Source of the DNA: an uncultured Gammaproteobacteria bacterium | GTDB taxonomy: Bacteria > Patescibacteriota > Microgenomatia > PFEM01 > CAYIUX01 | DNA length: 48,155 nt | Direction of reading: 5' to 3' | Assembly: GCA_964366795.1 (NCBI GenBank) | Contig: CAYIUX010000001.1 | Span: forward strand, 1 to 48,155 | Shown: one piece after another, positions 7,846-46,571 of the stretch | Numbering within the stretch: position 1 is the first letter of the stretch | Layout: each line of letters starts with the position of its first letter | Position numbers and translations under genes: made by a program | The notes under the pieces: generated by a model | What the model was told of the DNA's origin: nothing | Database searches by the model: none | Seen by the model: only the letters and a program-made list of their open reading frames with translations

Positions 7846-9312
7846 TTAGTCTAAAGATTGCTTATTGATATTTTTCAGATAATTAAATAAAGATTTTGTG
7901 AGTTGTAAAAAATCAGAAGGCGTTTTTTCCCAACTTTCCATCCTAATCCTCATACAATATCCATACCAACTAAAAAAGATAAACTGATAAAGTCTATCTA
8001 AAGGTAAAGAGATTAAAACATCCATAAACCGGCGCAAAAAAGGAAATTCGACGACAATACCAAAAATTTTATGTAGCCGCTCAGCTTTCTTTTTCTCTTT
8101 AGGATCTGAGAAAACTAGTTCCGAGGTCATTTTATTTGTTACCGCAACCTGATCCCAGCTTTTTTTCTTAAAATATCCATTTTTCAAGGCGTAATTTCCA
8201 ATAGAAGTCCCAGGGTAAGGATAAAGAATAGACGACCAGGCGAAATTAGGACGACATTTTATATTTAAATCTAGTGTTTGAAGGTCAATCTTTAATGAAT
8301 GCTTGACCGGAAGAGCAATCAAATTTTGACTCGTAAAAATAATAGAGTATTTTTTTAATAATTCGCATGTTTTAAAAATTTGCTCATTAGTCATAAGTCT
8401 TTTAAGAAGTTTATTTCGAATCTTTTCGTTTCCGCATTCTATGCCAAACCAGACAGCGTAGCAGCCAGCCTTTTTTAGAAGGCGAACCACTTCTTTATTG
8501 ATTAAATTAGCTCTAATATTGCACCAAAAGCGGATTTTTGTTTTCTTCATTTTTACGGCAAAATCCTCAAGCCATTCTTTTGGTTTCAAAAGAAAAGTAT
8601 CATCTTCAATCATGGCAAATTGAAAAGGATATTTCTTTTTAACTTCTAAAATTTCCGCAATAAAATTATCAACGCTTCTAAATCTAATAATTTCCCCCTT
8701 ATTTTTATAAATCTCGTTATACTTATGATTAAAACAATAGGTGCATTGGTAGGGACAGCCTCTCCCAGAAAAAAAGACTTTTGACTTGTATTCTTTGATT
8801 TCAGGAGAACTTTCATAAAGAATCTCTCTATCTGGAAAAGGCAGGCTGTCTAAATCTTCTATGAGTGGTCTTGGTAGATTTTTAATAATTTTGTTTCCCT
8901 TCTTAATCCATAAATTTTTAATTTTATCAATCGACTTTCCTTTTTTTAATCTTTCAAGAAGGTCTATTATTGCTCCTTCGCCTTCGCCAATACAAACAGC
9001 ATCAACCCCGCTTTTATTAATCATTTCGGGAAAAAAAGTTGGGTGAGGGCCGCCAAAAATAGAAAAAGCCCTGAATTTCTTTTTTAAACGTTTATTTAGA
9101 TTAAGGTAATAATTATGCTCCCCAGTCATTGTGCTATAAGCAAAAACATCTGGGGAATATTCTTTTACCTTCTTCAGAATTTGATCAAAACCAAGATTTT
9201 GCGTTTTAAGAAGTTTAGTTTGATGACCCCCTTGCTTTATTACCGCAGACAATGACATTATTCCCATTCGCTCAAAGAATTGAAATTCTTGAAGGAAAAA
9301 CAAAACTTTCAT
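7846..9312 (-). CDS. B12-binding (class B) radical SAM enzyme (divergent subfamily)
   Basis: 488 aa. The N-terminal B12-type region reads ...IFGGPHPTFFPEMI...AVCIGEGEGA. The cluster motif is GRGCPYQCTYCFN. Its C-terminal region differs from the other six paralogues. Confidence 0.82.
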   Translation of the reverse strand: MKVLFFLQEFQFFERMGIMSLSAVIKQGGHQTKLLKTQNLGFDQILKKVKEYSPDVFAYSTMTGEHNYYLNLNKRLKKKFRAFSIFGGPHPTFFPEMINKSGVDAVCIGEGEGAIIDLLERLKKGKSIDKIKNLWIKKGNKIIKNLPRPLIEDLDSLPFPDREILYESSPEIKEYKSKVFFSGRGCPYQCTYCFNHKYNEIYKNKGEIIRFRSVDNFIAEILEVKKKYPFQFAMIEDDTFLLKPKEWLEDFAVKMKKTKIRFWCNIRANLINKEVVRLLKKAGCYAVWFGIECGNEKIRNKLLKRLMTNEQIFKTCELLKKYSIIFTSQNLIALPVKHSLKIDLQTLDLNIKCRPNFAWSSILYPYPGTSIGNYALKNGYFKKKSWDQVAVTNKMTSELVFSDPKEKKKAERLHKIFGIVVEFPFLRRFMDVLISLPLDRLYQFIFFSWYGYCMRIRMESWEKTPSDFLQLTKSLFNYLKNINKQSLD

Positions 9313-9315
9313 ATC

Positions 9316-10218
9316 TTAAGTGGCTTTTTTGCGGTTAAGATAAGTTATCATTTCTGCCAAAAGTCCGGTGGAAAAAAGCTGGACACCAATGACCATTAGA
9401 AGGATACCGCCCAGAAGAAGTGGCTGGCGCCCCTGAATGTTACCAAATGAAAACCTAAGATAGCTGATATAACAACCGATGATAAAACCGATGAAAAAAA
9501 GAACTACTCCGATACTACCAAAAAAATGAGCCGGGCGGCGGATAAATTTGGTTAAGAATACAATCGTGATTAAATCAAGAAAGCCTTTTAGAAAACGATC
9601 CCAGCCGAACTTTGATTGACCAAATTTTCTAGGACGATGACGAACAGGGATTTCCGTGATTTTAAATTTATTTTCGGCAACTAAAATAGGAATTAGCCGA
9701 TAAAGTTCGCCGTATAAAGGTAGACTTTTAACTACCTCTTTTTTGTAAGCCTTAAAACCGCAGTTAAAATCGTGAAGTTTCACCCCCGAAAGGGTAGAAG
9801 CCAAAAAATTCCAAAAACGGGAAGGAATGACTTTGCTTAAAGGGTCTTCTCTCTCTTTTTTCCAACCGCAAACAAAATCATAATTTTGGTTGATTTTGGT
9901 TAAAAATTTTGGGATTTCCGCCGGGTCATCCTGAAGATCAGCGTCCATGGTAATAATTATTTTTCCTTTTGCTTGATTAAAACCCGAAGACAAAGCCTCT
10001 GATTTACCAAAATTACCCCGAAATTTAATGATGCTTACCTGCTTGTCCTTTTTTCGAAGCTTTTCCATAATCTCGAGAGAATTGTCAGTACTGCCATCGT
10101 CAATAAAAATAATTTCAAAAGATTTTTTAAGCGGTTTTGTTGCCGCTAAAATTTCCCCATACAGGGCTTCGAGGGTTTTTTCTTCATCTTTAACGGGAAT
10201 GACAAAAGATATATCCAT
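9316..10218 (-). CDS. GT2 polyprenyl-phosphate sugar synthase (GtrB/ArnC/Dpm1-like) with two C-terminal TM helices
   Basis: 300 aa. Motifs are FVIPVKDEE...IIFIDDGSTDNS...ITMDADLQDDP (the DADLQ motif of the Dpm1/ArnC type). The C-terminal TM pair reads FFGSIGVVLFFIGFIIG...LLLGGILLMVIGVQLFSTGLLAEMI. Confidence 0.85.
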   Translation of the reverse strand: MDISFVIPVKDEEKTLEALYGEILAATKPLKKSFEIIFIDDGSTDNSLEIMEKLRKKDKQVSIIKFRGNFGKSEALSSGFNQAKGKIIITMDADLQDDPAEIPKFLTKINQNYDFVCGWKKEREDPLSKVIPSRFWNFLASTLSGVKLHDFNCGFKAYKKEVVKSLPLYGELYRLIPILVAENKFKITEIPVRHRPRKFGQSKFGWDRFLKGFLDLITIVFLTKFIRRPAHFFGSIGVVLFFIGFIIGCYISYLRFSFGNIQGRQPLLLGGILLMVIGVQLFSTGLLAEMITYLNRKKAT

Positions 10219-11330
10219 TAGCGGTATTTTACCATTTTCAAAGCCAAAATTGAAAGAATGTACATAAACGGCAAAAGAGGTAAAAGATAGCGGGGATAGA
10301 CAACTCCGAATGAGAGTGAGGCAAGATAAACAATCACCCAGATAAGAAGAATATTAGCTTCGCTCGGCCATTTCTTCTTTTTAAGTAAAGCTAAAGCTCC
10401 CATTATTAAGGAAATGATTGTCGTTATTGGCCAGGTGATTTGCCAATCAGGAGCAGGCAAAGGTCTCCGGTCTGCCCACCAAGTAATCCATTTTTTAAGA
10501 AAGATAAGTTGCCAAACAGAACCTGGTGGCACCAAAAATTTTCCTTGAGAATGAAAATTCCACATCCATTTTTGAATCCCGAAAAAACGGCGCAAGCTTT
10601 CTCCCTCAATAAAAATCTTAAGATAAGAAGCCATCAAAACTAATATTGCCAAAGGTAAACTGATTATTAAATTTGCCAGACCTTGGCGGTTGCGACTTAA
10701 AACTAGATATGTTATCCAAGAAAAAATAACAATCACCCCGGAGAAATAAAATTTCGTGGCGATTACTCCACCCAAAGCCAGTGAGGCAAAAGCAAAGAAA
10801 ACCTTTCTTTTTTGAGCCGTTAAAAAGAAATAAAAAGCTAAAAGAACAAAGAAAAGATGATAAATATCCAGCAAGGCATTATCTAATTGGCTGACAAAAA
10901 GAGATTCAAAAGACAAGATGACTATCGGGATAAGAGCAAGAATAGTTGATTTTAAAATGATTTTTCCGATTAGAAAAACCAAAATTAAGGAAAAGATGCC
11001 AAAAATTAAAGAGCCAACCTCAATCCGCTTAAAAAGCAAAATCGAAATCCCCATAAGATATTTTCCTAAGGGAGGCATCTCCGGATTAATTAAGGTTGGA
11101 TTTTTACCATGGACATATTCCCAGGCGGCATATCCATAGACGATATAGTCTGAAATAGGAGCGCCACCTTTTTGGGCGTAAGTTGAACCAAGATAGGCTC
11201 TTTTATGAGCCAGAGGATCAAACTTTTGGAAAGTATTAGGTTGATTCCAAAGATAAAATCCAATCCGAAATATAATTAGGCTTAAAATTAAAAAGGGTAA
11301 GATTTTTTTAATGGTTTTAAGAATGGACAT
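10218..11330 (-). CDS. Multi-pass membrane protein, GT-C (PMT/GT39-like) candidate
   Basis: 370 aa. The first loop reads ISDYIVYGYAAWEYVHGKNPTLINPEMPPLGKYLMG, a PPLGK motif as in PMT-type enzymes. There are at least 8 hydrophobic segments. It shares a start/stop nucleotide with the downstream GT2. Confidence 0.55.
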   Translation of the reverse strand: MSILKTIKKILPFLILSLIIFRIGFYLWNQPNTFQKFDPLAHKRAYLGSTYAQKGGAPISDYIVYGYAAWEYVHGKNPTLINPEMPPLGKYLMGISILLFKRIEVGSLIFGIFSLILVFLIGKIILKSTILALIPIVILSFESLFVSQLDNALLDIYHLFFVLLAFYFFLTAQKRKVFFAFASLALGGVIATKFYFSGVIVIFSWITYLVLSRNRQGLANLIISLPLAILVLMASYLKIFIEGESLRRFFGIQKWMWNFHSQGKFLVPPGSVWQLIFLKKWITWWADRRPLPAPDWQITWPITTIISLIMGALALLKKKKWPSEANILLIWVIVYLASLSFGVVYPRYLLPLLPFMYILSILALKMVKYR

Positions 11331-12639
11331 GAGTTAAAACAGAGAGAATATTTAAAATTAGGAAAATGATTAGCCAAAAATATGTTGCTCTCTTGCCAAG
11401 GCTGGTAAAATTTTTTTGCCAAAAGGCGGATGGTAAAAGCGAGGCCGTACCAAGGATGACAATAGTTCTAAAAAGAGTGGTGGAGATGCCAAATATCTCC
11501 TCCCAACCCCAAAGAAAAGCTGAAGAAGCAATTAAGAAAAAGAAAAATAAATTAAGCAGACCAGGTTGGTCTAATATTTTTTTAATTACAACCGCCGAGG
11601 CAATAATCAAAAATGGATAAAAAGGGGAACGATACCAACCCTGGGCTTCCACGCCGGGGATAGCGAAGACAAAAATCAGAAAATAAGCGAGCAAAGGAAT
11701 TAAGAGCTTAAAATGTCTTTTGAAATTCAAACTTAATATAAAAGTTGCCAGCCAACCAAAATAAATCCAACCATCCGGATAAAGACGGTCGACTAAATAT
11801 GGGTGAGTAAATAATGCCAAGACGTTTCCTAGTCCAATTTTCGCCCGGGCAAGTTGCAACCCCCAAAGGCTAACAAATGTTTGCCAATCGTAATACCAAC
11901 CGTAGAGAAAAAACAGAGAAAAGAAACCAACAGCCACAAGACCAATAATGAAGGCATCAGTCCAGCGTTTTTCCTTAGCCAAAAGCAAACAAACTGCCAG
12001 CGTTACCGCTGACCAGGGAATTTTAGCCAAAACCAAAAGACCACAAAGAACAGCGACCAGATTTCGCTGCCAAGTTTTTCTTGATTCTAAATAACGAAGT
12101 GTAATCAGCCAAATGACTAACATTATTGGAATTAAAAAGTTTTCGTTTTGGACAATTCGGGAACCAATAACAATCGTGGGAATAGTGGCATAAAGAAGGG
12201 CTGATAAAAGACCCACAAAATCTCCATAAAGTTTTCTGGCTAAGACAAAAACTAGGAAAATTGAGAGTACCCCCAATATTAAAGACAAAATTCTTATTTG
12301 GCTAAGACTGATGTCGAACATTTCCTTAGAGCCAGTTATGAGAGCGAAACCACCGGCGACGAGACCAAAAAAGGGGGGATGTTCTAAATAGGGGGTAACC
12401 AATCGAACCCAAGCGCCCTGGAATTTTTTAAGCTCGTAGTTTTTATATTGATAGTGAGGCGACCAAGAGGTAGGAACATGATTTTGCCAAAGACTAATTC
12501 CTTGCCAGGTCCAGGCAAATTCATCAAAAGTCGCTCCGTGACGGGGAAATTTATCATAATTATGAAATCTTAAGAAAAATCCTAAAAGAAGGATAAAAAC
12601 TAGGGTAGGTAAAATCCAAATTTTTTTACTTTTTCCCAT
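11317..12639 (-). CDS. GT-C membrane glycosyltransferase (ArnT/PMT_2-like)
   Basis: 440 aa. The sequence GATFDEFAWTWQGISLWQNHVPTSWSP...LEHPPFFGLVAG carries the DE motif plus the HPP motif in the first periplasmic loop. It is multi-pass. Confidence 0.68.
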   Translation of the reverse strand: MGKSKKIWILPTLVFILLLGFFLRFHNYDKFPRHGATFDEFAWTWQGISLWQNHVPTSWSPHYQYKNYELKKFQGAWVRLVTPYLEHPPFFGLVAGGFALITGSKEMFDISLSQIRILSLILGVLSIFLVFVLARKLYGDFVGLLSALLYATIPTIVIGSRIVQNENFLIPIMLVIWLITLRYLESRKTWQRNLVAVLCGLLVLAKIPWSAVTLAVCLLLAKEKRWTDAFIIGLVAVGFFSLFFLYGWYYDWQTFVSLWGLQLARAKIGLGNVLALFTHPYLVDRLYPDGWIYFGWLATFILSLNFKRHFKLLIPLLAYFLIFVFAIPGVEAQGWYRSPFYPFLIIASAVVIKKILDQPGLLNLFFFFLIASSAFLWGWEEIFGISTTLFRTIVILGTASLLPSAFWQKNFTSLGKRATYFWLIIFLILNILSVLTHVHS

Positions 12640-14123
12640 CTTTCAGCAGGTATTTCAGTTAATTTCGTTTTCTTAATATATAAACAAGTTGGTTTGCCGG
12701 AAAAATATAACTGAATATAATCTTTTACTTGATATTCAGGTAACGACTGGGAATAGTATACATCTTTTGGGCAATCTCCGTAATAAAAATCAGGAGGATT
12801 TCGGCGAAACATCTCATCTCGCGCTTCAGTATATTTTGGAAAATAAGGCATTACCGAGGTATACCAAGAATATTTATAAGATGAAGGAAGATTTGCCTGC
12901 CAGTAAATTAAATCATCCCACATTTCCACAAATAAGGTATCGGTTGGCTCGGCTAAAATTTTAATTATCTCTCCATTGACAAAATAATTGCCATAACTGG
13001 TATTGAATTCTCCTTTTGGGTCAATTTTCTCCCAAATAAATGAGCGACCAGGAAAAAGCGAATAAGCGAAAGTTAAGACGAGTAAAAATAACGCCATCAA
13101 AGCCAATTTTTTGTTTTTAATATCTTTCAATAACCAAAAAATGCTGACGATAACCAAACCATACCAAGGGACGATATGGAAAGCTTCATAAAATACCGCC
13201 CCCGGAGCGACAAACCTGATGTTAGCCAATCCCAAAATTAGAATTATGGCAATAACCTCTTTTACCCTTTTTCTTTGAGTCACCAAAGCCCCGATTAAAA
13301 TCAAAAAGGTAACATCTAAACTCATTAAAATAGTCCTAAAGAAATTCCATTTTCCCCCGAAGAAAAGATAAATTGGATAAGCAAAGATTTTAAAGAACCC
13401 GATTCCGAGAATTTCGCCTGTCCTGATTTCCACCGCCGAGTTAATCTTAATTACATTAAATAAATAATCTGGCAAGGGCAAAGATAAAAGGGTAAAAGAA
13501 GAAAGAATGATGAATAAAATCATGGATATAAGTTTATCCTTAGAAAATTTTCCTCCCCAGATAATTAAAGCATAAATAAATATAGCCACGGGAATATAAG
13601 GTTCTCGGGCAAAAACTACCAACCAGGCAAAAACAGCGCTCAAAACAAAATCAAAGGAGTGAATTTTCTCTTTTCGCCACTTAGACCAAAGCAGGCCGAG
13701 CATATAAACTAGGGGATAAACAATTATCCCCTCGGCTAAAAATCGATCGCCGAAAAGATAATATTTTGTTGGCTCATAAATAAGGGTAAATCCAACCCCA
13801 ATCCAGCCAAAGCGGAAAATAAGCAAAAAATCCATTAGAAGGGCAACCAGAAATATAAACATTCGATGATAGAGGATTAATTGATAAAGATTTCTGGGAT
13901 GAAGCAGTATCTGAATGGCGTAGCTCACATATGCCATCAACGGTTGGTGATTAAAAAAGATTTCTGAGTATAAAATTTTGCCTTTAAGCATAAAATAGGC
14001 AGCGACATAGTTGAAACAGTCATCAAAACAACCAAAAGCCCCAATCCTTTTGTAATAGATTTTGAAAATAAAAAGAAAAAAGAAAAGAAAGCCAGCACCG
14101 AGAAGAATCTTTTTTGTTTTCAT
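12600..14123 (-). CDS. Multi-pass membrane protein, possible GT-C
   Basis: 507 aa with about 11 hydrophobic segments. The first loop, FGCFDDCFNYVAAYFMLKG...FNHQPLMAYV, loosely echoes the DD/HPPL arrangement. The C-terminal soluble region is about 140 aa. It overlaps the downstream gene by 40 nt. The CDS call is firm, but the function is uncertain. Confidence 0.5.
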   Translation of the reverse strand: MKTKKILLGAGFLFFFLFIFKIYYKRIGAFGCFDDCFNYVAAYFMLKGKILYSEIFFNHQPLMAYVSYAIQILLHPRNLYQLILYHRMFIFLVALLMDFLLIFRFGWIGVGFTLIYEPTKYYLFGDRFLAEGIIVYPLVYMLGLLWSKWRKEKIHSFDFVLSAVFAWLVVFAREPYIPVAIFIYALIIWGGKFSKDKLISMILFIILSSFTLLSLPLPDYLFNVIKINSAVEIRTGEILGIGFFKIFAYPIYLFFGGKWNFFRTILMSLDVTFLILIGALVTQRKRVKEVIAIILILGLANIRFVAPGAVFYEAFHIVPWYGLVIVSIFWLLKDIKNKKLALMALFLLVLTFAYSLFPGRSFIWEKIDPKGEFNTSYGNYFVNGEIIKILAEPTDTLFVEMWDDLIYWQANLPSSYKYSWYTSVMPYFPKYTEARDEMFRRNPPDFYYGDCPKDVYYSQSLPEYQVKDYIQLYFSGKPTCLYIKKTKLTEIPAERWEKVKKFGFYLP

Positions 14124-14130
14124 GAATCTC

Positions 14131-14139
14131 TGATATAAT
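14131..14139 (+). promoter_or_regulatory. Candidate extended -10 promoter element (TGATATAAT) for the 19-gene plus-strand operon
   Basis: TGnTATAAT lies at 14131-14139 in the 27-30 nt divergent gap, 15 nt upstream of ATG 14154. No convincing -35 element is present. Confidence 0.3.
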
Positions 14140-14153
14140 TTTAGCAGAAAGTG

Positions 14154-15803
14154 ATGAAGAAGAAAATTTTAACTAAAGGCTTACCTTTTTTACTTGCCAT
14201 AATTTTTTTCCTTGTTGGATTAATTACCTTGAGTGATTACGGTATTAATTGGGATGAACCCGACCATTTTATGCGCGGACAGGCGTATTTAAGATATTTT
14301 TTTACCGGCAAAAAAGATTATCAAGGACTTCCCCGTCAATTTCGGAGGAGTATTTACCAGAATGACTTTTATACGCTGGCTAATTGGTATAAAGATGATT
14401 CCGGTCATCCCCCGCTTGGTGATATTTTGGCTGCCACCACCAATTGGATTTTTTACCAAAAATTGGGAATCCTAGGCGATATTGAAAGCTATCATTTGTT
14501 TGAAGTTTTGACTGGAGCGATTCTCGTTTTGGTAGTGAGTTTATTTGCCCAAGAAACATATGGAGTTTTTGCTGGGTTAATCGCTGGTTTATCGCTTGCT
14601 CTTTATCCTCTTTTTTTGGGAGAATCTCATTTTAACATTAAAGACCCGGTTGAGACCTGTTTTTTTGGTTTGACTATTTGGTCTTTCTGGAAAGCGATTA
14701 AGAGTCAATCGCCTAAATGGATGATTTCTTCGGCAATTTTTTGCGGGATGGCTCTGGGAGTAAAATTTAACATTATTTTCGTTCCGCTTATAATCTTACC
14801 CTGGCTTTTTGCCAGAGGAATCAAAAGAAGCTTTTCTAAAAAAATTTTAAAATCTTTGTTTTTTTACCCACTTGTTTCTTTTGGAATTTTCTTTATTTCC
14901 CGGCCTTATTTTTGGTCTGACCCATTCAATCACACTCTGGAGATTATTAAATATTACCAAAGTATTGGATTACAACAAAATTTCCAACCCCCGAATTTTT
15001 ATATTTTGGGCTTCAATACCTATCCTCTTCAGGCGGTTATTTTTACCACTCCGCTGGTAATTTTATTTTTTAGTCTTATCGGCATTATTGCCTGTTTTTT
15101 TCTTTTTAAAAAAGAAAAAGAAAAAACAAGTTTTTTGTGGCTATTATGGCTGGTGGTGCCAATATTAAGAGTAACTGTCCCTAAAACTTCAATCTATGGT
15201 GGGGTAAGGCAAATAATGTAATCTGTCCCGGCGATGGCATTTCTAGCTGGTTTGGGAGCAGAAAGCCTAAGACAATTTATAATGAACAATTTACAATTTA
15301 GAATTAAAAACAGAAAAAAATTATACATTTTACATTATACATTTTACATTGCCCTGGCTCTTTCTTTTCTTCCTATCGCTCTTAAGCTTATTTCGCTCCA
15401 TCCCAATGAAGGCCTTTATTTTAATCCCTTAATTGGGGGATTAAAAGGAGCGGCGGAAAGAAATTTTCCCAATTGGGGATTAAGTTTAGGCAATGAATAT
15501 CGCCAGGGGATTAACTGGTTTAACCAAAATGCTCCTCCCCAGGCAAATTTAACTTTAGCCAGAGGACTTTTGTCTAATATTCCCCGGATTTGGATAAGGG
15601 AAGATATTAATTTTGGTGATTATTATTTTAGCGGTCCAGCCGGTAAAGGAGAATATATAATGGAATTAACTCATGAGGGTTGGGAAGGTTGGATTCCGGC
15701 GAAAGCAAAATATCTCCAAACTTTAAAGCCAATTTATCAGTTAAAAGTTGAAGGAGTAACCGTCTTAACTATATGGAAGAATAGTCCAGAAATGGTAAAA
15801 TAA
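14154..15803 (+). pseudogene. GT-C glycosyltransferase paralogue of 4788-6782 interrupted by one in-frame TAA (15219-15221)
   Basis: Tracked ORFs 14151-15221 and 15234-15803 are in the same frame. The paralogue reads GVRQIM-E-YIPAMALL (gaa) where this copy reads GVRQIM-*-SVPAMAFL (taa). The NWDEPDHFMRGQAY and DSGHPPLGDILAA motifs are retained. The copy lacks the C-terminal discoidin-like domain. Confidence 0.7.
15286..15350. repeat. In-frame heptanucleotide tandem arrays flanking an A-rich spacer
   Basis: The first array is acaattt|acaattt (15286-15299). The spacer is agaattaaaaacagaaaaaaatt. The second array is atacatt|ttacatt|atacatt|ttacatt (15323-15350). Together they encode NNLQFRIKNRKKLYILHYTFYI, at the same loop position as the arrays at 5892-5956 in the paralogue. 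Confidence 0.85.
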
Positions 15804-15808
15804 TACGG

Positions 15809-16636
15809 ATGGAAACCAATCCTCTTGTTTCGGTAATAATTCCTGCCAAAAATTCAGCCCAATTTATTAAATCCTGTCTGGAAAGTATCAAAAAACAGAC
15901 TTATAAAAACATTGAAATTATTGTTGTTGATAATAATTCAACTGATAAAACAAAGGAGATTGTTTGCAAATACACAAAATTAGTTTTTAATCATGGTCCA
16001 GAACGGGCAGCTCAAATGAACTTTGGGATAAAGAAAGCTAAGGGTCAATATTTATATCGAGTTGATTCCGATTTTATTTTAGAACCCGAAGTAGTTGAAC
16101 AATGTGTAGAAAAATGTGAGAAAGAGAGCCTAGACGGTATTGCCGTGATTAATACTTCGGCTGAAGGACTTGGTTTTTGGGCTGATGTCAGAAAACTTGA
16201 AAGAAATGCCTATCGAGACGACGAACTGATTGTTGCCGTTAGATTCTTTAGTAAAAAATCATTTGAGAAAATCGGTGGTTTTGATGAGACCTTATATGGA
16301 CCAGAAGATTATGATTTTCATAATCGTTTTTTAAAGGCAGGGTTTAAATGGGGTAGAATCAGGGCGATTGAGAGACATTTAGGAGAGCCAAAATCTTTGC
16401 TGGATATTGCTAAAAAACATTTTTTTTATGGTCAAGAAATGCTTTCTTACTTAAAAAAACATCCCCAAAGGGGACTAAAGCAAATAAATCCTGTCAGAAG
16501 AGCTTATTTACGCCACTGGAAGGATTTTATTTCTCACCCTAGTCTATCTTTGGGAATTGGCATTATGACAATTGTTAAATTTGGCACTGGAGGATTAGGA
16601 TTTATTAAAGCATTAATCTTTGGTCCAAGAAGATAA
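15809..16636 (+). CDS. GT2 family glycosyltransferase
   Basis: 275 aa. Motifs are VSVIIPAKNSAQFI...KQTYKNIEIIVVDNNSTDKT...YRVDSDF. It is a clear paralogue of 28066-28908, sharing KQTY-NIEIIV, DSD and CV-KCEK. Confidence 0.85.
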   Translation: METNPLVSVIIPAKNSAQFIKSCLESIKKQTYKNIEIIVVDNNSTDKTKEIVCKYTKLVFNHGPERAAQMNFGIKKAKGQYLYRVDSDFILEPEVVEQCVEKCEKESLDGIAVINTSAEGLGFWADVRKLERNAYRDDELIVAVRFFSKKSFEKIGGFDETLYGPEDYDFHNRFLKAGFKWGRIRAIERHLGEPKSLLDIAKKHFFYGQEMLSYLKKHPQRGLKQINPVRRAYLRHWKDFISHPSLSLGIGIMTIVKFGTGGLGFIKALIFGPRR

Positions 16637-16637
16637 T

Positions 16638-17372
16638 ATGGCAAAAGAAAAAAAACTACCATCTGGAATTTCTATCATTCTACCTGCCTTCAATGAAGAA
16701 AAAAACATTGAGCAAATGGTTGACGAGTGTTTATCTTATTTGCGGAAATTAAAAGATGGTTATGAAATTATTATTGTTAATGACGGTTCGTGGGACAAAA
16801 CTGGAGAGATTGCTCAAAAAATCGCCCAAAGGAATAAAAAAGTTAGAGTACTCACTCACCCTGTGAATAAGGGCTATGCCCAAGCCCTAAGAGACGGATT
16901 TAATTCTGCTAAGTTCGATTATGTTTTTTTTACTGATGCTGATAGGCAGTTTAAGCTAGATGCTTTAGACGTAATGTTTCCAATTGCTAAAACTCAAGTA
17001 GTTGATTTGGTTATTGGTTATCGATTAAAAAGAAAAGATCCATTTTTAAGAAAATTCCTTTCTTGGGGCTACAATACTTTAGCCAGTTTCCTTTTTGACT
17101 TAAATGTTAAAGATATTGATTGCGCTTTCAAACTATTTAGGAAAGACATTTTTAAAAAGATTAAAATTGAATCCAAATACTTCTTTTTTAATACAGAAAT
17201 TTTAGCCAAAGCAAGATTTTTTGGTTTCAATATTATCGAGGTTGGAGTTCCTCATTTTCCCCGAACTGCTGGAAAATCAACAGTGAGTTTTAAATATATC
17301 CCCCTGACAATTAGAGAGTTAATCAGAATCAGAAAAAACCTGCAAAAGTTAAAAAAAGGGAGAAAGAGTTGA
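16638..17372 (+). CDS. GT2 polyprenyl-phosphate sugar synthase-like (soluble Dpm1-type)
   Basis: The tracked ORF starts at 16620. ATG 16638 sits 1 nt after the upstream stop. Motifs are ISIILPAFNEEKNI...EIIIVNDGSWDKT...NKGYAQALRDGF...FFTDADRQF. No TM helices are present. Confidence 0.82.
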   Translation: MAKEKKLPSGISIILPAFNEEKNIEQMVDECLSYLRKLKDGYEIIIVNDGSWDKTGEIAQKIAQRNKKVRVLTHPVNKGYAQALRDGFNSAKFDYVFFTDADRQFKLDALDVMFPIAKTQVVDLVIGYRLKRKDPFLRKFLSWGYNTLASFLFDLNVKDIDCAFKLFRKDIFKKIKIESKYFFFNTEILAKARFFGFNIIEVGVPHFPRTAGKSTVSFKYIPLTIRELIRIRKNLQKLKKGRKS

Positions 17373-18769
17373 GAATTCTTTTGGTTAAACCAGTTACTCC
17401 TCAAGGAGTAGTTTTGAATTGTATTCCCCCAATTGGGTTAGGTTATCTTGCCACCGCTCTTCGAAAGGAGAGATTTAAAGATGTCGCTATTCTTGATTGC
17501 GTAAAGGAGGGGCTAGATTATCCTTCATTTAAGAAAAAAATTAACAAATACCGACCCGACATTGTTGGCTTCCAGATTTTTTCCCAAGATTTACCTTCTT
17601 TGGAAAAGAGCCTTGAAATAGTAAAAAAAATTAATCCCCAAATTATTACCCTTGCCGGTGGTCCCCATCCTTCAGGTTTACCAGAAGAAACACTTAAAGA
17701 TTTTAAAAATCTCGATTTTGTCTTCTGTGGTGAGGCAGAAATTGGACTACCCATGCTTGTCAGGGCTTTAAAAACAAGAAGGGGATTTTCCCAGATCCCA
17801 GGATTAGGCTGGAGAAATAAAAAAGGGAAAATAGTCATCAATCCCCAAATTTTTGTTGATGATTTAGATGGTTTGGGATTTCCTGCCTGGGATTTGCTAA
17901 AACCCCAAGAATATCCCGATGCCCCACAGGGGATAATTTTTAAAAATTTACCGATTGCTCCAATTATGGCTACCAGAGGCTGCCCTTTTTCTTGTACTTT
18001 TTGTGCCGGTTGGACAATCTCTGGAAAGAAAGTAAGAAGAAGAAGCGTTGGTCATATTTTGAAGGAAATAGAATTTTTATATAAAAAATATGGAGTGAGA
18101 GAAATTCATTTTTTGGATGACAATTTTACTTTAAATAGGGATTATGTTGAGGATTTTTGTCGCCAACTTTTAAAAAAAGGCTTTAAAATTAGCTGGTGTT
18201 GCCCAAATGGAGTCAGGCTTGATACTTTAAATAAAAGGCTTTTGAAACTAATGAAAAAAGCGGGCTGTTATTATGTTTCGGTGGGAATTGAGTCAGGCTC
18301 CGATCGGATTTTAACACTAATGAAAAAGGGAACAACCATCAAAAAAATAAAAAAAATGACGAAGATGGTAAATGAGGTGAGGATGACAATTAACGGATTT
18401 TTTATTCTTGGCTATCCTGGGGAAACAAAAAAAGATATTCTTAAAACTATAAAATTTGCTAAAAGTCTGGGTCTCACTCGAGCCGCCTTTTATAATTATT
18501 TACCTTTACCGCGAACCGAATCATATCAAAAGTTATTAGCTAACGGCGAATTTAAAGAAAAAAGAATTGACTGGAATCAAATTTTTCAGGCGGACGTACC
18601 TTACGCCCCGATGGGCATTAGTCAAAAAGAATTAAAAGACCTCCAAAGACGGGCTCATTTGGAGTTTTACCTCCGCCCAATAATTCTCTGGCGGTTGATT
18701 AAAGAAATTCGCACATTTGAACAATTAAAATATATTTTAAGAAGGGCGAAAGCTTACATGCTAGGATGA
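17369..18769 (+). CDS. B12-binding (class B) radical SAM enzyme
   Basis: 466 aa. The N-terminus reads MRILLVKP...IGLGYLATAL...LAGGPHPSGLPEE...FCGEAE. The cluster motif is TRGCPFSCTFCAG. The C-terminal EFYLRPIILWRLIKEIRTFEQLK is shared with 29574-30989. There are ATGA overlaps at both ends. Confidence 0.88.
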   Translation: MRILLVKPVTPQGVVLNCIPPIGLGYLATALRKERFKDVAILDCVKEGLDYPSFKKKINKYRPDIVGFQIFSQDLPSLEKSLEIVKKINPQIITLAGGPHPSGLPEETLKDFKNLDFVFCGEAEIGLPMLVRALKTRRGFSQIPGLGWRNKKGKIVINPQIFVDDLDGLGFPAWDLLKPQEYPDAPQGIIFKNLPIAPIMATRGCPFSCTFCAGWTISGKKVRRRSVGHILKEIEFLYKKYGVREIHFLDDNFTLNRDYVEDFCRQLLKKGFKISWCCPNGVRLDTLNKRLLKLMKKAGCYYVSVGIESGSDRILTLMKKGTTIKKIKKMTKMVNEVRMTINGFFILGYPGETKKDILKTIKFAKSLGLTRAAFYNYLPLPRTESYQKLLANGEFKEKRIDWNQIFQADVPYAPMGISQKELKDLQRRAHLEFYLRPIILWRLIKEIRTFEQLKYILRRAKAYMLG

Positions 18770-22909: not shown

Positions 22910-23589
22910 AAATGAAGAAATTAGTAGAAATAGATTCCAAGAAATTTTATGAAATTAACGAATTGGTTGTAAGAACGACTCCCATGAGGACTCATTATCA
23001 TTCAAAAAATATTTTGGAAAGATGGGTTTGGCAAAGAAAGAAAAAAATTATTAAAAATTTGCTCGATAATCTCTCTTATAATTCAATTATTGACGTCGGG
23101 TGTGCAGATGGTGGTCTTTTTGAATTGGTAAAGGAAAATTGTGATTATACCGGAGTAGATATTTCGCCTACTCAAATTGCTTATTTTAAGCGTATTTTGA
23201 AAGAAAATAAAATCACTAATAAAGCAGAATTAATCAAGGCTGATGCCAGGAAAATGCCTTTTAAAAATAGAAAATTCGATGTGGCTCTGGCATGTGATGT
23301 TTTGGAACATCTGCTCGACCCTATAAAAAGCATGAGAGAAATAAAAAGAGTAGTTAAGAATGGGGGTTATGTTATCTTTAGTATTCCAAATGAAAGTCTT
23401 TTCCAGCTTGTGAGGCTTTTGACAGGAAGATTTCCCCTTCGCTCCCCAGACCATTTGTATTCAATAACAGTTGAAGATATTAAACAACATTTCCCAAAAA
23501 TTATAAAACAATTTGGAATTCCCCTAAATTTATCTCCCAATTTAAATTTAATTAATATTTTGTTGGTGAAGAATGAACACCGTCGTTAA
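22906..23589 (+). CDS. Class I SAM-dependent methyltransferase
   Basis: 227 aa. Motif I is IIDVGCADGGLFE. Other motifs are DISPTQI and FDVALACDVLEHL...NGGYVIFSIPN (Methyltransf_11-like). Confidence 0.78.
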   Translation: MKMKKLVEIDSKKFYEINELVVRTTPMRTHYHSKNILERWVWQRKKKIIKNLLDNLSYNSIIDVGCADGGLFELVKENCDYTGVDISPTQIAYFKRILKENKITNKAELIKADARKMPFKNRKFDVALACDVLEHLLDPIKSMREIKRVVKNGGYVIFSIPNESLFQLVRLLTGRFPLRSPDHLYSITVEDIKQHFPKIIKQFGIPLNLSPNLNLINILLVKNEHRR

Positions 23590-25300
23590 TTTAAAAACTA
23601 GATATATTTTTTTAATAATCACAATAGCGATTTTATTTACTTTCTGGGAATTACCTAAGACTTTTTTCCAGCAAGATGAATGGCAATATTTTGGTTCTAT
23701 AATTTATGCCCTATCTTCCGATAATCATTTCTTAAGCATCATTCTGCCATTTAAAGGAGGGTTGACCCATTTCTTTCCCCTCTCGAACTTGTTTTTCCTT
23801 TTGGAATATCTTTTATTTAAAACAGATTTTCCTCCTTACGCATTGGTAAATATAACTTTTCATCTCATAAATACGTTTTTGGTTTTTTTTCTGATAAAAA
23901 AAATTTCCAAAAGGACAATAATTGCCTTTATGGCGTCTTTACTTTTCGCCGTTAACAGCATTTCTCATCAAGCTGTGAGTTGGGTGGCGAGCGTGATTGG
24001 CACTTTGCCGAGTACTCTTTTTATCTTGCTCTCTTTAATTTTTTTTGTTGATTATCTTGAGAAAGAAAATCGCTTTAAGTATTTTTTGGTTTCTTTGTTT
24101 TTTTTAACCGTCGCTCTTCTTTTGAAAGAAACAGCAGTTTTTTTATTTGTTTTCTTTCCCCTAGCTTGGCTTATTTATAATTTTTCAAATCTGAAAATCA
24201 GCCTTATAGGAGCTAAAAAACCGTTTTTAGCCCTGATTTCTTTTGGGGTTTTTTACGTATTTCTAAGGGTTTTCTTATTATTTTTTGGGCTTAGCTCATC
24301 GCAGCCCGAAGTTACAGATGTAAGCATTGTTCCTTTGCCCGCATATATTTACCGATTATTTACAATTCCTCTTAAGGCAGTTTCTCAGAGTATTTTTCCT
24401 GCAAAGATGATTCTTGGTTTCTCTAGGAGAATTGTTTATCTTGCTTACCCTCAATTTATAGCCTCTGATGGGATGGCAGATCCATATTTAGTTGAAAGCG
24501 CCGTCGCCGATCTTGTTGTTTATGGTTTGGTAGCGATTATCCTCCTCTTATTTTATTGTGTTTTCAGGTATCTGGTAGGTAATAAAGAAAAGAGCTTAAC
24601 TAAAGCCCTGGTATTTTCTTTGGTTTTTATGGGTATCAGTTCTTTGCCTTTTGTTTTTGTTCCCGGACGCGCTGGTTATTTTTCCATTTTTGAGCCGCGA
24701 AATCTTTATATTTTAGCAATCGGTTCGAGTCTTATGTTGGTTATTTTTTCTTATATTTTAGCGAGCTTGCTGAGTAAAAAGCCTAAAATTGTTAATTTTT
24801 TAACTTTGTTTTTTCTAATACCTCTTTTATTCTTTCATATTAAAACTATTCAAAAAGATATTAAGAATTTGAAAGTTATTAGTGATTTAAGAAGGTCTTT
24901 TTTAATTCAGATTCAGACATCTTATCCTGAATTACCCCAAAAAGTAATATTTTATACCCAAAGCGATGCTTGCTATTATGGCCTGCCAGAAGAAGAGAAA
25001 ACTTTGCCGGTTCAATCTGGATTTGGTCGAATGTTGATGATTTGGTATCAAGAAAAAGAAAATTTTCCGGGATGTCTTTATGAAGATCAGTTTCTCCATG
25101 ATTTAATTTCCCAGGGTTATCAAGAATGCCAGGGAAGGGGATTTGGTTATTTTCGGGATTATAATCAGTTAAAAGAAGCTTTAAGAGAGAATAATCTTTC
25201 GGTTGATGATGTTTTTGCTTTTTCTTGGAAAGGAAAAGCCGAAGAGTTTAAGGATGTTAGTCAACAGATAAGGGAAAAACTTCAAAATGAGAAGATTTAA
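23573..25300 (+). CDS. Multi-pass GT-C-like membrane protein (PMT/TMTC-like motif pattern), paralogue of 26420-28069
   Basis: 575 aa. The first loop is FFQQDEWQYFG (a DE motif). This is followed by FHLINTFLVFFLIKK and LLFAVNSISHQAVSWVAS, which resembles the YHxxNxxLH / LLFAxHPxHxEAVxW arrangement of PMT/TMTC-type GT-C enzymes. The C-terminal soluble domain is about 150 aa and has no TPRs. Confidence 0.55.
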   Translation: MNTVVNLKTRYIFLIITIAILFTFWELPKTFFQQDEWQYFGSIIYALSSDNHFLSIILPFKGGLTHFFPLSNLFFLLEYLLFKTDFPPYALVNITFHLINTFLVFFLIKKISKRTIIAFMASLLFAVNSISHQAVSWVASVIGTLPSTLFILLSLIFFVDYLEKENRFKYFLVSLFFLTVALLLKETAVFLFVFFPLAWLIYNFSNLKISLIGAKKPFLALISFGVFYVFLRVFLLFFGLSSSQPEVTDVSIVPLPAYIYRLFTIPLKAVSQSIFPAKMILGFSRRIVYLAYPQFIASDGMADPYLVESAVADLVVYGLVAIILLLFYCVFRYLVGNKEKSLTKALVFSLVFMGISSLPFVFVPGRAGYFSIFEPRNLYILAIGSSLMLVIFSYILASLLSKKPKIVNFLTLFFLIPLLFFHIKTIQKDIKNLKVISDLRRSFLIQIQTSYPELPQKVIFYTQSDACYYGLPEEEKTLPVQSGFGRMLMIWYQEKENFPGCLYEDQFLHDLISQGYQECQGRGFGYFRDYNQLKEALRENNLSVDDVFAFSWKGKAEEFKDVSQQIREKLQNEKI

Positions 25301-26423
25301 ACTGTTATTTTTTTTGTTTTTAAGAAATCCACTGGCGAGTGTGATTGCTGTTTTCCAGGTTATTCGAAAAAAATCTCTTTTGGATTACCGATTATTCAAT
25401 AATGGCTTTAGTTTTTATCCGACCACCATTGTTTTTCATCCGACTGCCAGGTGTAATCTGAATTGCAAAATGTGTGTGATTAGTTCTTATGATTTTCCCA
25501 AAGAACTGACGCTTTTGGAAATTAAAAAAATAATTGACCAGATTGCTTTTTTTAAGCCCCATTTTTACATCGCCGGAGGCGAGCCGCTTTTGAGGAATGA
25601 TTTAGAGCAAATAATTGCCTACGCTAAAAAGAGGGGATTGATAACTACTTTTACAACCAATGGAATTTTGCTCAATAGCAAAAGAGCAAGAAGTTTGATT
25701 AAATCTGGAGTTGATGGTATTGCTGTTTCAATTGACGGACCAAAAATGATTAATGACCAGATAAGAGGTAAAGGTAATTTCGAAAAAGCAGTGGAGGGGA
25801 TAAGACTTCTTAGGAAGGTTCGCCAAAGAAACAATACCCTTTTCCCCAAATTAAAAATAGCCACCGTCATTTCCGGTTTTTCTTATCGTTATTTGGAAGA
25901 GATGGTTAAGTTAGCTGGAGATTTAAAAATCGAGGAGATTGTATTTTTCCACTTGGATTATAAAACTCAAAAAATTGCTAAAACTCACCAAAATTGTATG
26001 ATAGGGTACTTTAATCAGTCAATAGGCTGTTTGGGTTATGTGGTGGGGAATATGCTTTCACTGGCAGAGAAAAAATTTGTCGGCATCAAACCAGAGATTT
26101 TGAAACAACAAATTCAAAAAATCTTCTCCCGGCCACATCCAGTTTCTGTTTCTTTTGCTCCCCCTGTTCCTTTTGCTAAAATTGATGATTATTATAGCGG
26201 CAAATATTTTAATGATTTTGCCTGCACTAATCCTTGGTTTTCCGTTACAATTTTACCAAATGGAGATTTAGTGCCATGTTTTAGCTTGAAAGCCGGCAAC
26301 CTAATGGAGGAAGATTTTAGATATTTGTGGAATAGTGACTTATATAAAAAATTTCGACGATATCTTAAGAAAAACCGCCATTTCCCAGGATGTTTCCGTT
26401 GTTGCGGAACCACCGACGTATGA
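25287..26423 (+). CDS. Radical SAM enzyme with C-terminal SPASM/twitch domain
   Basis: 378 aa. The cluster motif is HPTARCNLNCKMCV and the SAM-binding motif is AGGEPLLRND. The C-terminal CTNPWFSVTILPNGDLVPC...PGCFRCC fits Cx12Gx4C...CxxCC. Confidence 0.85.
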   Translation: MRRFKLLFFLFLRNPLASVIAVFQVIRKKSLLDYRLFNNGFSFYPTTIVFHPTARCNLNCKMCVISSYDFPKELTLLEIKKIIDQIAFFKPHFYIAGGEPLLRNDLEQIIAYAKKRGLITTFTTNGILLNSKRARSLIKSGVDGIAVSIDGPKMINDQIRGKGNFEKAVEGIRLLRKVRQRNNTLFPKLKIATVISGFSYRYLEEMVKLAGDLKIEEIVFFHLDYKTQKIAKTHQNCMIGYFNQSIGCLGYVVGNMLSLAEKKFVGIKPEILKQQIQKIFSRPHPVSVSFAPPVPFAKIDDYYSGKYFNDFACTNPWFSVTILPNGDLVPCFSLKAGNLMEEDFRYLWNSDLYKKFRRYLKKNRHFPGCFRCCGTTDV

Positions 26424-28069: not shown

Positions 28070-28908
28070 AAAAATTTCCTTTGGTTTCGGTCAATATTCC
28101 TACTTATAACTCCAGTCTGACATTGGCTGAGACCCTAGAATCGGTGAAGAAACAAACATATCCCAACATTGAAATTATAGTTGCCGATGGTCACAGTCAG
28201 GATGATACCCTAAAGATTGCCAAAAAATACGGCGCCAAAGTTTATTATGCTCAAGAATTAGGTCGAGCCAGATTTAAAGCGTTTTCTAAAAGCCAGGGAA
28301 AATATGTTTTATTTTTCGATTCAGACCAAGTGATGGATAAAGATTTAATCGCCAAATGTGTGGCAAAATGTGAGAAAACAAATTGCGACGCCCTAACCTT
28401 ATCAGAAAAATCAATTATTAGAAAAGGAACACTGGTGGAAAAACTGATTGCCTATGACAAATTCGTGATTGATTCTTTAAAAGATGATGATGCGATTTTC
28501 GGAACGGCTGTTCCCCGTTTTTTTAGAGCAGAAATTTTAAGAGGAATTGTTTGGCCCAAAGAACTTTCTGTTTTTGACCATACAGGAATTTTTTTGGAAA
28601 TCGTCAAAAAAGGGGCTAAGGTGGAATATATATCTTCGCCATCATTGAGACATTATGAAGTTGATAGTTGGAGAAAATTTTTCAAAAAATTCTATCGTTA
28701 TGGACTTTATTATTTTGATGCTTTAAAGGGTTATCCTGGACCAGTCATTGCTCATAGTTTTCCTAGAAGAGTTTATTTTACAAAAGTGGCTTTAAGAAAA
28801 CCTGCCTGGTTTCTTGGCCTTTTATTTTTGTATTTTGTTAAAGGAATTGCCGCTGCTCTAGGGATTATCGCTTATTTTTTGAGAAAAGGAAAAGTTTATG
28901 AAAGTTAG
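28066..28908 (+). CDS. GT2 family glycosyltransferase
   Basis: 280 aa. Motifs are VSVNIPTYNSSLTL...KQTYPNIEIIVADGHSQDDT...LFFDSDQ. It is a paralogue of 15809-16636. Confidence 0.85.
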   Translation: MKKFPLVSVNIPTYNSSLTLAETLESVKKQTYPNIEIIVADGHSQDDTLKIAKKYGAKVYYAQELGRARFKAFSKSQGKYVLFFDSDQVMDKDLIAKCVAKCEKTNCDALTLSEKSIIRKGTLVEKLIAYDKFVIDSLKDDDAIFGTAVPRFFRAEILRGIVWPKELSVFDHTGIFLEIVKKGAKVEYISSPSLRHYEVDSWRKFFKKFYRYGLYYFDALKGYPGPVIAHSFPRRVYFTKVALRKPAWFLGLLFLYFVKGIAAALGIIAYFLRKGKVYES

Positions 28909-29566: not shown

Positions 29567-29573
29567 GGAAATC

Positions 29574-43179: not shown

Positions 43180-43490
43180 GATTTACTTTTGGAAAGACAA
43201 AAATTTTGTTAATTTTAATTCTTTTGTCCCTCTCTTTAGTTTTTAGGGAGTTGCCTTATGTTAATGTTCTCGTTGCTGGAAAACTCTGGATTTTTTATGG
43301 CTTACTTCTGCTTTTTTTAATTTTTCCCTGGAAAATCCACCACTTGCCGTTAGTTTTATTGAGCCTGTTTCTTTTATTAATTGCTTTTTTGCTTACATTA
43401 GTTAAGCTTTATAATTTTTCTGAGATCTTGGGAATTGCTATTTATTTTCTTTTATGGTTGGCGGTTATTTCAAAAATAACCAAGGCTTAA
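43176..43490 (+). CDS. Small integral membrane protein (about 104 aa, 3-4 TM)
   Basis: The tracked ORF starts at 43119. ATG 43176 forms an ATGA overlap with the upstream stop. The sequence is MRFTFGKTKILLILILLSLSL... and is highly hydrophobic. No family was recognised. Confidence 0.5.
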   Translation: MRFTFGKTKILLILILLSLSLVFRELPYVNVLVAGKLWIFYGLLLLFLIFPWKIHHLPLVLLSLFLLLIAFLLTLVKLYNFSEILGIAIYFLLWLAVISKITKA

Positions 43491-43492
43491 AA

Positions 43493-46564: not shown

Positions 46565-46571
46565 ATGATTG

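Follow-up and report, generated by a model that had tools for sequence, protein, structure and literature searches.

Why does an operon that otherwise looks like a lipid-carrier glycosylation route end in a radical S-adenosylmethionine (rSAM) gene? Such routes, which combine a family 2 glycosyltransferase (GT2), a flippase and a GT-C glycosyltransferase, decorate O-antigens, teichoic acids, lipid A, arabinogalactan and surface proteins. The question is raised by five minus-strand genes of contig CAYIUX010000001.1, whose 48,155 nt were analyzed as a whole and are called the window here. We judge it probable, by a modest degree, that the five genes form one polyprenyl-phosphate-sugar glycosylation unit in which the rSAM would tailor the GT2-linked sugar by radical chemistry. 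The list of open reading frames (ORFs) contains a run of five co-directional genes, about 6.3 kb in size, with exactly the order and coordinates that a sequence-only reading of this DNA had given:

12600-14123, minus strand: first gene, 507-aa polytopic membrane protein with a predicted GT-C fold
11317-12639, minus strand: second gene, 440-aa putative GT-C of the PMT_2/ArnT-like class
10218-11330, minus strand: third gene, short GT-C-like membrane protein of 370 aa
9316-10218, minus strand: fourth gene, 300-aa GT2 of predicted ArnC/GtrB type
7846-9312, minus strand: fifth and last gene, 488-aa predicted class-B rSAM (with a B12-binding domain)
14124-14150, between the strands' divergent genes: intergenic region of 27 nt, separating the operon's first gene from a plus-strand GT-C gene at 14151

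The genes are packed as that reading had described, each overlapping the next or standing 3 nt from it. Read from the sequence, the 507-aa and 440-aa genes overlap by 40 nt, the 440-aa and 370-aa genes by 14 nt, and the 370-aa gene and the GT2 gene by 1 nt (TAATG); a 3-nt gap, TAAGATATG, lies between the GT2 and the rSAM. Beyond the end of the rSAM gene, 72 nt away, lies a convergent rSAM-SPASM gene. At the other end, the 27-nt intergenic region, presumed to be the promoter region of the operon, contains TATAAT on the plus strand (14134-14139) and, on the minus strand, an A/T-rich TAAAAT/TATAT immediately before the ATG of the first gene. Between 7600 and 14400 promoter-like sites are not in excess (19, versus 19.7 in shuffled sequence), and terminator-like sites are ∼2.5 standard deviations over expectation, yet every one of them falls within coding sequence. 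As these scans are uninformative, it is the gene junctions that suggest a single transcript for the five genes. Both ends of the operon recur in independent metagenome assemblies, which rules out an assembly chimera: in locus L174 the GT2 orthologue (89%) is followed, after a 3-nt gap, by the rSAM (94%), and in locus L092 the orthologue of the 507-aa protein (90%) overlaps that of the 440-aa GT-C (91%). These belong to a set of 175 loci that we examined; the 160 loci from two collection scans are a sample among the matches listed rather than the whole family.

The GT2 would load the carrier. Pfam assigns it to PF00535 with 116 bits, and residues 3-292 of its 300 align with residues 10-296 of ArnC in the PDB (9bhc, 8vxh and 9hwj; E about 1e-45), followed by GtrB (5ekp, E of 4e-29) and an archaeal DPMS (5mlz, E of 2e-17). 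Its motifs D92ADLQDDP and D150FNCGFKAY align with LDADLQNPP and GDYGCMLRAY of ArnC, and its C-terminal part has two predicted transmembrane (TM) helices (236-254 and 267-285). The NCBIfam models that it matches are ArnC (184 bits, full length), PgfS of the PgfS/PgfM system (137 bits) and AglJ (86 bits). The ArnC score compares with a cut-off of 529 for NF007986, and the assignment as an ArnC equivalog was rejected. By sequence, the protein is thus assigned to the polyprenyl-phosphate glycosyltransferase class, of the ArnC/GtrB type and not as an ArnC orthologue, and the earlier description of it as GtrB/ArnC-like holds over its full length.

The rSAM shows the architecture of a class-B enzyme. 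It matches PF02310 with 59.1 bits (cut-off 32.1) and PF04055 with 63 bits, and its Fe-S motif, C186PYQC190TYC193, contains three cysteines that are invariant in 48 homologues. The residues that are invariant in the family comprise C186xxxC190xxC193, TGEH63-66, GGPHPT87-92, GEGE, DDTF237-240 and YPYP364-367. No TM segment is predicted by a hydropathy scan. The AlphaFold2 (AF2) model has a pLDDT of 92.8, and Foldseek matches it to MgmA/QCMT, OxsB, AprD4, CysS, TsrM and TokK, with TMq values of 0.62-0.73 at 13-18% identity. The best PDB sequence match is AprD4 (E of 2e-25), over residues 151-414 only, and in the family profile the N-terminal domain aligns with the cobalamin domains of TokK, OxsB and QCMT. 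On these grounds the class-B architecture is assigned from sequence and the use of cobalamin is predicted. The best NCBIfam scores all fall below cut-off (HpnJ, 118.7 versus 577.6; BchE, 107 versus 481; TIGR04295, 73 versus 400), with the ladderane-lipid rSAM at 77 bits, HpnR at 76 bits, and the BchE, ApyD and PhpK models similar to these; no named class-B equivalog in NCBIfam fits. The searches by profile and structure therefore bear out the class-B fold and domains of what had been called a divergent B12 rSAM, and they give it no named family.

This divergence is apparent within the window as well. The rSAM is the outlier of the six rSAMs with a B12-binding domain (B12-rSAMs) in the window, being 25-30% identical to the others, which are 30-36% identical among themselves. 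The sequence-only reading was correct in placing it in a subfamily apart and miscounted its paralogues as "the other six": there are five other B12-rSAMs, plus three rSAMs without the B12 domain, making eight of any kind. Outside the window, the family of the rSAM is found at 45-50% identity across Patescibacteria, Omnitrophota, Nano-/Woesearchaeota, Elusimicrobiota, Scalindua, Zixibacteria, Nitrospina and Methanosarcinales.

All three remaining proteins appear to be of the GT-C type, as had been claimed, two of them by Pfam and the third by its predicted fold. In the first loop of each, an acidic motif precedes one of the form H/M/Q-P-P/L (FDDC33/NHQPL58 in the 507-aa protein, FDEF38/HPPF87 in the 440-aa protein and SDY60/MPPLG85 in the 370-aa protein). 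The 440-aa protein matches PMT_2 with 55.9 bits against a cut-off of 26.1, has nine predicted TM helices, with FDEF at 38 and HPPF at 87, and its orthologues are 79% identical in L081 and 91% identical in L092. The 370-aa protein barely exceeds the thresholds, with 28.1 bits for PMT_2 (cut-off 26.1) and 27.2 bits for PMT. It also has nine predicted TM helices, is without a large extracytoplasmic domain, and carries SDY at 60 and MPPLG at 85; no homologue of it was found in the 175 fetched loci.

Neither Pfam nor NCBIfam has a match for the 507-aa protein. A hydropathy scan predicts 10 TM helices in it, and the C-terminal ∼150 aa form a soluble domain. Its family has 531 homologues, and the named members are solely Levybacteria and Parcubacteria of the candidate phyla radiation (CPR), which points to a CPR/Patescibacteria genome as the probable source of the window. 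In the first loop after TM1, F33-D34-D35-C36 and N58-H59-Q60-P61 are invariant or nearly so, with D34 conserved in at least 90%. The AF2 model (pLDDT 90.3, pTM 0.91) retrieves GT-C proteins from the PDB at all of Foldseek ranks 1-9, namely ArnT, AglB, ALG9, AftA, AftD and ALG3, with probabilities of 0.96-1.00. ArnT is the top structural match. The TMq values are moderate, 0.41-0.50 for ArnT, AglB and AftA and 0.30-0.37 for ALG9, AftD and ALG3. Alignment of the family with hhalign shows no similarity to the 440-aa GT-C or to a 555-aa protein that recurs beside distant orthologues of the rSAM, so the GT-C call for this protein is drawn solely from the predicted fold and the position of the motifs. 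On its modeled fold, we take the 507-aa protein to be a GT-C protein in a family without a curated model.

By analogy, the GT2 and the GT-C enzymes would define a polyprenyl-phosphate-sugar route, which we propose with high confidence because of what is established for the Arn, Gtr, CsbB/YfhO and Ppm1/PMT systems. In the proposed scheme, the GT2 would move one sugar from a nucleotide sugar to polyprenyl phosphate at the cytoplasmic face of the membrane. The cytoplasmic rSAM, encoded on the same message, would tailor the sugar while it is still on the nucleotide or, as the more attractive option, once the monosaccharide is lipid-linked and not yet flipped; C-methylation, ring contraction and dehydration are the candidate reactions. 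A protein encoded outside the operon would flip the product, after which the sugar could be handed on at the cell surface by the three GT-C enzymes, each serving its own acceptor or linkage. The substrate and chemistry of the rSAM, the sugar and the acceptors are all putative in this scheme.

Since the rSAM must act in the cytoplasm, it would be left with a nucleotide-bound sugar, with a lipid-bound sugar that has yet to be flipped, or with an unrelated substrate. C-methylation is the commonest class-B reaction, while HpnJ and OxsB carry out ring contraction and AprD4 a dehydration. Sugars are also altered after they have been linked to a lipid carrier: ArnD deformylates undecaprenyl-phosphate-linked Ara4FN (Und-P-Ara4FN), and DprE1/E2 epimerise decaprenyl-phosphate-ribose. 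The GT2 HpnI together with HpnK and the class-B rSAM HpnJ, and also calditol synthase, act on lipid-attached hexoses (PMC13459092). These precedents favor sugar tailoring that is coupled to the GT2, and it is the structure of the operon that suggests such a functional coupling of the rSAM to the GT2 product.

The remainder of the window bears on this coupling. A Pfam scan of all 38 ORFs of at least 150 aa finds nine rSAMs, of which six are B12-rSAMs, two are rSAM-SPASM proteins and one is a plain rSAM. They are accompanied by six GT2s and five GT4s, by an epimerase, a UDP-glucose dehydrogenase (gene at 21605) and three methyltransferases, and by about ten GT-C or unassigned polytopic membrane proteins. 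To judge by this gene content, the window is one glycan-biosynthesis island. Besides the pair in the operon, it holds two other modules in which a GT2 directly precedes a B12-rSAM:

16620-17372 and 17369-18769, plus strand: module 2, soluble Dpm1-type GT2 overlapping a B12-rSAM, both genes by Pfam
28898-29566 and 29574-30989, plus strand: module 3, soluble AglJ/Dpm1-type GT2 and, after 7 nt, a B12-rSAM, by profile and PDB matches

The GT2 at 16620 is 33% identical to that at 9316, and its best PDB match is DPMS (5mlz, 2.5e-16), followed by ArnC; its pairing with the B12-rSAM is conserved in L081 and L092. The GT2 at 28898 scores 150 bits with AglJ and 7.5e-21 with DPMS (5mlz). Both are soluble proteins of the Dpm1/AglJ/PpgS type, and the three remaining GT2s of the window are of other types. 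All three of the Dpm1/ArnC-type GT2s in the window therefore directly precede a B12-rSAM, and the partners come from three different rSAM subfamilies. In permutations of the gene order (38 genes, three Dpm1/ArnC-type GT2s, six B12-rSAMs), this arrangement has a p of about 0.002 when the rSAM is on the downstream side and about 0.02 when it is on either side. The three co-locations that the sequence-only reading had pointed to are thus real.

The closest relatives of the rSAM extend this observation to other genomes. Many of the metagenome contigs are short, and the percentages for neighborhoods are rough. Among relatives scoring at least 600 bits (n = 8, 54-94% identical), a glycosyltransferase lies no more than two genes away in all eight and a GT2 in six. 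One locus (L091) has the orthologue of the 507-aa protein, then the rSAM, then an ArnC-like GT2 orthologue (75%). Another (L085) has an ArnC-like GT2, a different B12-rSAM, and then the rSAM, and in an Omnitrophota locus (L087, 57%) a PMT_2 GT-C is followed by the rSAM, another B12-rSAM and a Dpm1-type GT2. In L081, the GT2 orthologue (72%) and that of the 440-aa GT-C (79%) are located on the opposite strand, ∼2-4 kb upstream of the rSAM gene.

A number of observations weigh against the coupling of the rSAM to the GT2 product. The operon encodes no flippase, and there is no further non-overlapping ORF of at least 80 aa in 7846-14123. AprD4 and ArsL, which belong to the same similarity network, do not bind cobalamin (PMC12931638); with AprD4 as the best PDB sequence match, binding of cobalamin by the rSAM is not provable from its sequence. 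The island is dense in rSAMs (9), GT2s (6) and GT-C or polytopic proteins (∼10), which makes proximity weak evidence for a specific pairing. The rSAM orthologue of L081 is directly preceded by a different, non-Dpm1-type GT2, and in L089 a relative that is 53% identical stands alone amid housekeeping genes. Among relatives of 380-600 bits, which are about 40-52% identical and come from many phyla, a GT2 is found no more than two genes away in only 8 of 76, and GT2s account for 4 of the 140 neighbors in a census of metagenome loci. The earlier expectation that orthologues would always neighbor GtrB-like genes thus gets a mixed answer: linkage to this GT2 is confined to relatives of at least 600 bits (L174, L091 and L081), and the expectation fails for the wider family. 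Given the rarity of the GT2 link in that family and the shuffled gene order, we only infer the coupling between rSAM and GT2.

Several of these observations also fit an explanation in which the operon reflects packing within a mosaic glycan island and the rSAM is one of nine interchangeable tailoring enzymes, with no specific tie to the GT2 product. It would then act on another intermediate, for example a nucleotide sugar destined for a cytoplasmic oligosaccharide built by GT4s and GT2s, or on the finished glycan. Gene order is indeed fluid among relatives that are 74-78% identical: apart from the non-Dpm1 GT2 of L081 and the second B12-rSAM of L085, the partners include a methyltransferase with a short GT2 (L086). 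L090 has GT4s in the absence of a GT2, and L082 only a 45% identical GT2 homologue that is 7 kb off. In the wider family, where a GT2 is within two genes in ∼10% of loci, the most frequent neighbor at that distance is another B12-rSAM (21 of 76), sometimes as tandem paralogues. Packing by itself, however, does not lead one to expect that every Dpm1/ArnC-type GT2 of the window should directly precede a B12-rSAM. Nor does it readily account for L174, L091 and L081, where rearrangement has left the GT2 orthologue beside the rSAM gene or no more than ∼4 kb from it, or for the 3-nt junction, which suggests co-translation. We consider this explanation somewhat unlikely.

If the rSAM does tailor the GT2-linked sugar in this operon, the same role may extend beyond it. 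The larger neighborhoods point to the membrane: large polytopic proteins make up 15% of the neighbors that are no more than two genes from the rSAM and 6% of the genes at least four positions away. Forty-two large polytopic neighbors were found, of which 18 are PMT_2 and 3 are PTPS_related proteins, with single or double occurrences of YfhO, STT3, ALG9-like and TMEM260-like proteins and a handful of unrelated transporters; GT-C families thus account for at least half. Two Pfam censuses of the genes within two positions, one covering 33 genome loci (124 genes) and the other 54 metagenome loci (140 genes), give Radical_SAM 20 and 12 times, GT2 10 and 4 times, and methyltransferases 5 and 5 times, respectively. 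GT4 is also recurrent, PMT_2/PTPS_related occurs 10 times in the metagenome census, and most of the neighbors are scattered or unannotated. The rSAM family leans to membrane-linked glycosylation, and a direct link to a GT2 is seen only among the closest relatives. As a tentative extension, which we find somewhat unlikely, a conserved multi-phylum family of class-B rSAMs would act on monosaccharides linked to polyprenyl phosphate, tailoring them on the cytoplasmic side of the membrane ahead of their use by GT-C enzymes. The phyla involved may include CPR, Omnitrophota, DPANN archaea, Zixibacteria, Nitrospinota, Anaerolineae and Scalindua, and C-methylation or ring contraction of the lipid-bound sugar are the candidate reactions.

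Two further arrangements recur among the more distant loci. In five Zixibacteria-type loci (L001, L095-L097 and L099), where the rSAM is ∼45% identical, the gene order is the 555-aa polytopic protein, the rSAM, and a 187-aa membrane methyltransferase resembling PEMT/ICMT, followed by a polytopic protein with a weak spermidine-synthase-like domain and then a protein of ∼770 aa. Neither the 555-aa nor the ∼770-aa protein has a Pfam match, and the arrangement suggests a membrane-lipid or lipid-linked pathway other than that of the window. Tandem rSAM paralogues, as two or three copies of similar score, occur in several phyla (L130, L140, L143, L148, L161, L166 and L167); in two of these loci, L130 and L143, PTPS_related/STT3-like GT-C proteins come after the copies.

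The membrane could also be the target itself: the rSAM would then methylate, or change in some other way, a lipid on which the GT2 and GT-C enzymes depend, be it the polyprenyl-phosphate carrier or a membrane lipid. The top NCBIfam models include the lipid-acting class-B rSAMs HpnJ (119 bits), ladderane (77 bits) and HpnR (76 bits), but these scores are far under the cut-offs and those for BchE, ApyD and PhpK are comparable. The C-terminal helical domain of the rSAM is rich in aromatic residues and is the most hydrophobic stretch of the protein, yet the hydropathy signal is modest, with no TM helix predicted, and is not decisive for lipid binding. Across phyla, the commonest recognizable partners are membrane GT-C proteins, and the PEMT/ICMT-like methyltransferase follows the rSAM in the five Zixibacteria-type loci; against this, the Pfam scan of the window sees no isoprenoid biosynthesis genes. 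Altogether, we find lipid modification improbable. Least credible by far is a decaying or non-functional paralogue in a fast-evolving island, an arrangement without functional meaning: a neighboring GT-C gene (14151-15803) carries an in-frame stop, and of the six paralogues it is the 7846 protein that has diverged furthest, but its ORF is intact with every family-invariant residue present, including the Fe-S cysteines, its model is confident (pLDDT 92.8), and its orthologues are 45-50% identical across bacterial and archaeal phyla, a conservation that argues against decay.

The rest of the island provides context for the tailoring route. The plus-strand modules 2 and 3 belong to a duplicated three-gene arrangement (15809-18769 and 28066-30989) consisting of a membrane-tailed GT2 (275 and 280 aa, 31% identical), a soluble Dpm1-type GT2 (250 and 222 aa) and a B12-rSAM (466 and 471 aa). 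These two rSAMs, 33% identical, form the most similar pair. The first copy is followed by a methyltransferase and is kept in L081 and L092. The rSAM at 29574-30989 scores 317 bits with HpnJ over its full length (cut-off 578), far above the other rSAMs of the window, and may be a sugar ring-contraction enzyme in a region without hopanoid genes. The PMT_2 GT-C gene that diverges from the operon (14151-15803, plus strand) is split into 14151-15221 and 15234-15803 by an in-frame TAA at 15219-15221. A paralogue at 4788 has Glu at this position (QIMEYIPAMA versus QIM*SVPAMA), and the L092 orthologue is intact, with 550 aa and 89% identity. The stop is a nonsense mutation, the mark of a pseudogene, or a sequencing error.

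Additional membrane proteins occur throughout the array. Two polytopic proteins of 575 and 559 aa, at 23573-25300 and 26390-28069 on the plus strand, are strongly related (phmmer 489 bits) and have 9-10 predicted TM helices. Pfam matches neither, and they flank an rSAM-SPASM gene at 25287-26423; they may represent further unrecognized GT-C-like families. In the plus-strand region 39853-45100, a 1108-aa protein has a weak AftD-type GT-C match (25 bits, slightly under threshold), and the 548-aa membrane protein after it is a distant relative (phmmer 37 bits). Two small and very hydrophobic plus-strand ORFs of 123 and 80 aa, at 43119-43490 and 46569-46811 and each with ∼3-4 TM segments, lie within or close to intergenic gaps, the only large ones of the window. 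The window shows no other sign of a GtrA/ArnEF-type flippase, and these two ORFs, far from the operon, are the only candidates for a small partner. Nearly all genes in 14000-48155 are on the plus strand and the cumulative GC skew climbs steadily from 0.1 to 1.6, consistent with a long co-oriented gene array on the leading strand from 14 to 48 kb.

The components of the operon are all of known kinds, and the function of its distinctive member is a proposed one. In literature on rSAMs with CPR, polyprenyl or undecaprenyl phosphate, and GT-C, we found no description of an rSAM in a Gtr/Arn-type operon or of this rSAM family, in keeping with the earlier view that the gene lies outside those paradigms. 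NCBIfam holds the model B12_rSAM_oligo (TIGR04295), so B12-rSAMs in glycan loci are not unprecedented. To our knowledge, sugars that are already lipid-linked are tailored by hydrolysis or by redox chemistry. Radical SAM tailoring, if true, would widen the chemistry of surface sugars to C-methyl, deoxy or carbocyclic forms, and would offer a first clue to the function of a large rSAM family that has no annotation. Were tailoring to prove general in that family, it would add a radical step to the paradigm of the Gtr, Arn and decaprenyl-phosphate-arabinose systems, with three uses in the window by three rSAM subfamilies. The operon also bears on how CPR bacteria construct their cell surface. We know of no cobalamin synthesis in CPR bacteria, and with this contrasts the presence of six B12-domain rSAMs in a single locus. 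The compactness of the five-gene operon makes the tailoring idea directly testable.

Among known systems, the Arn pathway of Gram-negatives (ArnC, ArnD, ArnE/F and ArnT) offers a close parallel. The GT2 is ArnC-like over its full length, with the DxD motif and two C-terminal TM helices, the 507-aa model has ArnT as its top match, and the proposed logic would be the same, in that a sugar is loaded on polyprenyl phosphate, tailored while lipid-linked, and transferred by a GT-C. The putative tailoring enzyme here, however, is a class-B rSAM rather than the deformylase ArnD, there are three GT-C genes instead of one, and the operon has neither an ArnE/F-like flippase nor the ArnA/ArnB genes for the precursor 4-amino-4-deoxy-L-arabinose (Ara4N). 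Gtr-type systems (GtrA, GtrB and GtrC/YfhO/GacL/PgfM, including CsbB/YfhO and PgfS/PgfM) likewise place a GtrB homologue beside GT-C transferases. They differ from the operon in that it lacks a GtrA-like small membrane protein and has the rSAM added as its terminal gene.

The HpnI/HpnK/HpnJ pathway and the calditol synthase Cds resemble the proposed coupling in another respect, as a GT2 puts a hexose on a lipid and a B12-domain rSAM rearranges the lipid-bound sugar (PMC13459092). With 119 bits versus 578 for HpnJ, and with no deacetylase, hopanoid or tetraether lipid genes here, the 7846 rSAM differs from these enzymes. The lipid expected here is, moreover, a polyprenyl-phosphate carrier that would feed the GT-C enzymes and not a final membrane lipid. 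Membership of the operon in the HpnI/HpnJ pathway was rejected because the score is far under the cut-off and the deacetylase and hopanoid context are absent.

The B12-domain rSAMs that tailor sugars in antibiotic pathways (GenK, GenD1, MoeK5, AprD4 and OxsB) have the same three-domain architecture as the 7846 rSAM. GenK, GenD1 and MoeK5 are C-methylases, AprD4 is a diol dehydratase and OxsB performs a ring contraction; the B12-rSAM fold can thus methylate, dehydrate or contract sugars. Identity to these enzymes is 13-18%, and the setting here is a predicted cell-surface glycan island, unlike a secondary-metabolite cluster. Finally, in the mycobacterial decaprenyl-phosphate-arabinose route (Rv3806c, DprE1/E2 and Emb/Aft) a sugar is altered on polyprenyl-phosphate and several GT-C enzymes share a single donor. 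The structural matches of the 507-aa protein include AftA and AftD. The enzymes that load and tailor the sugar are unrelated in the two systems: where the mycobacterial route relies on a phosphoribosyltransferase and on flavin- and NADH-dependent epimerases, the operon would make use of a GT2 and an rSAM.

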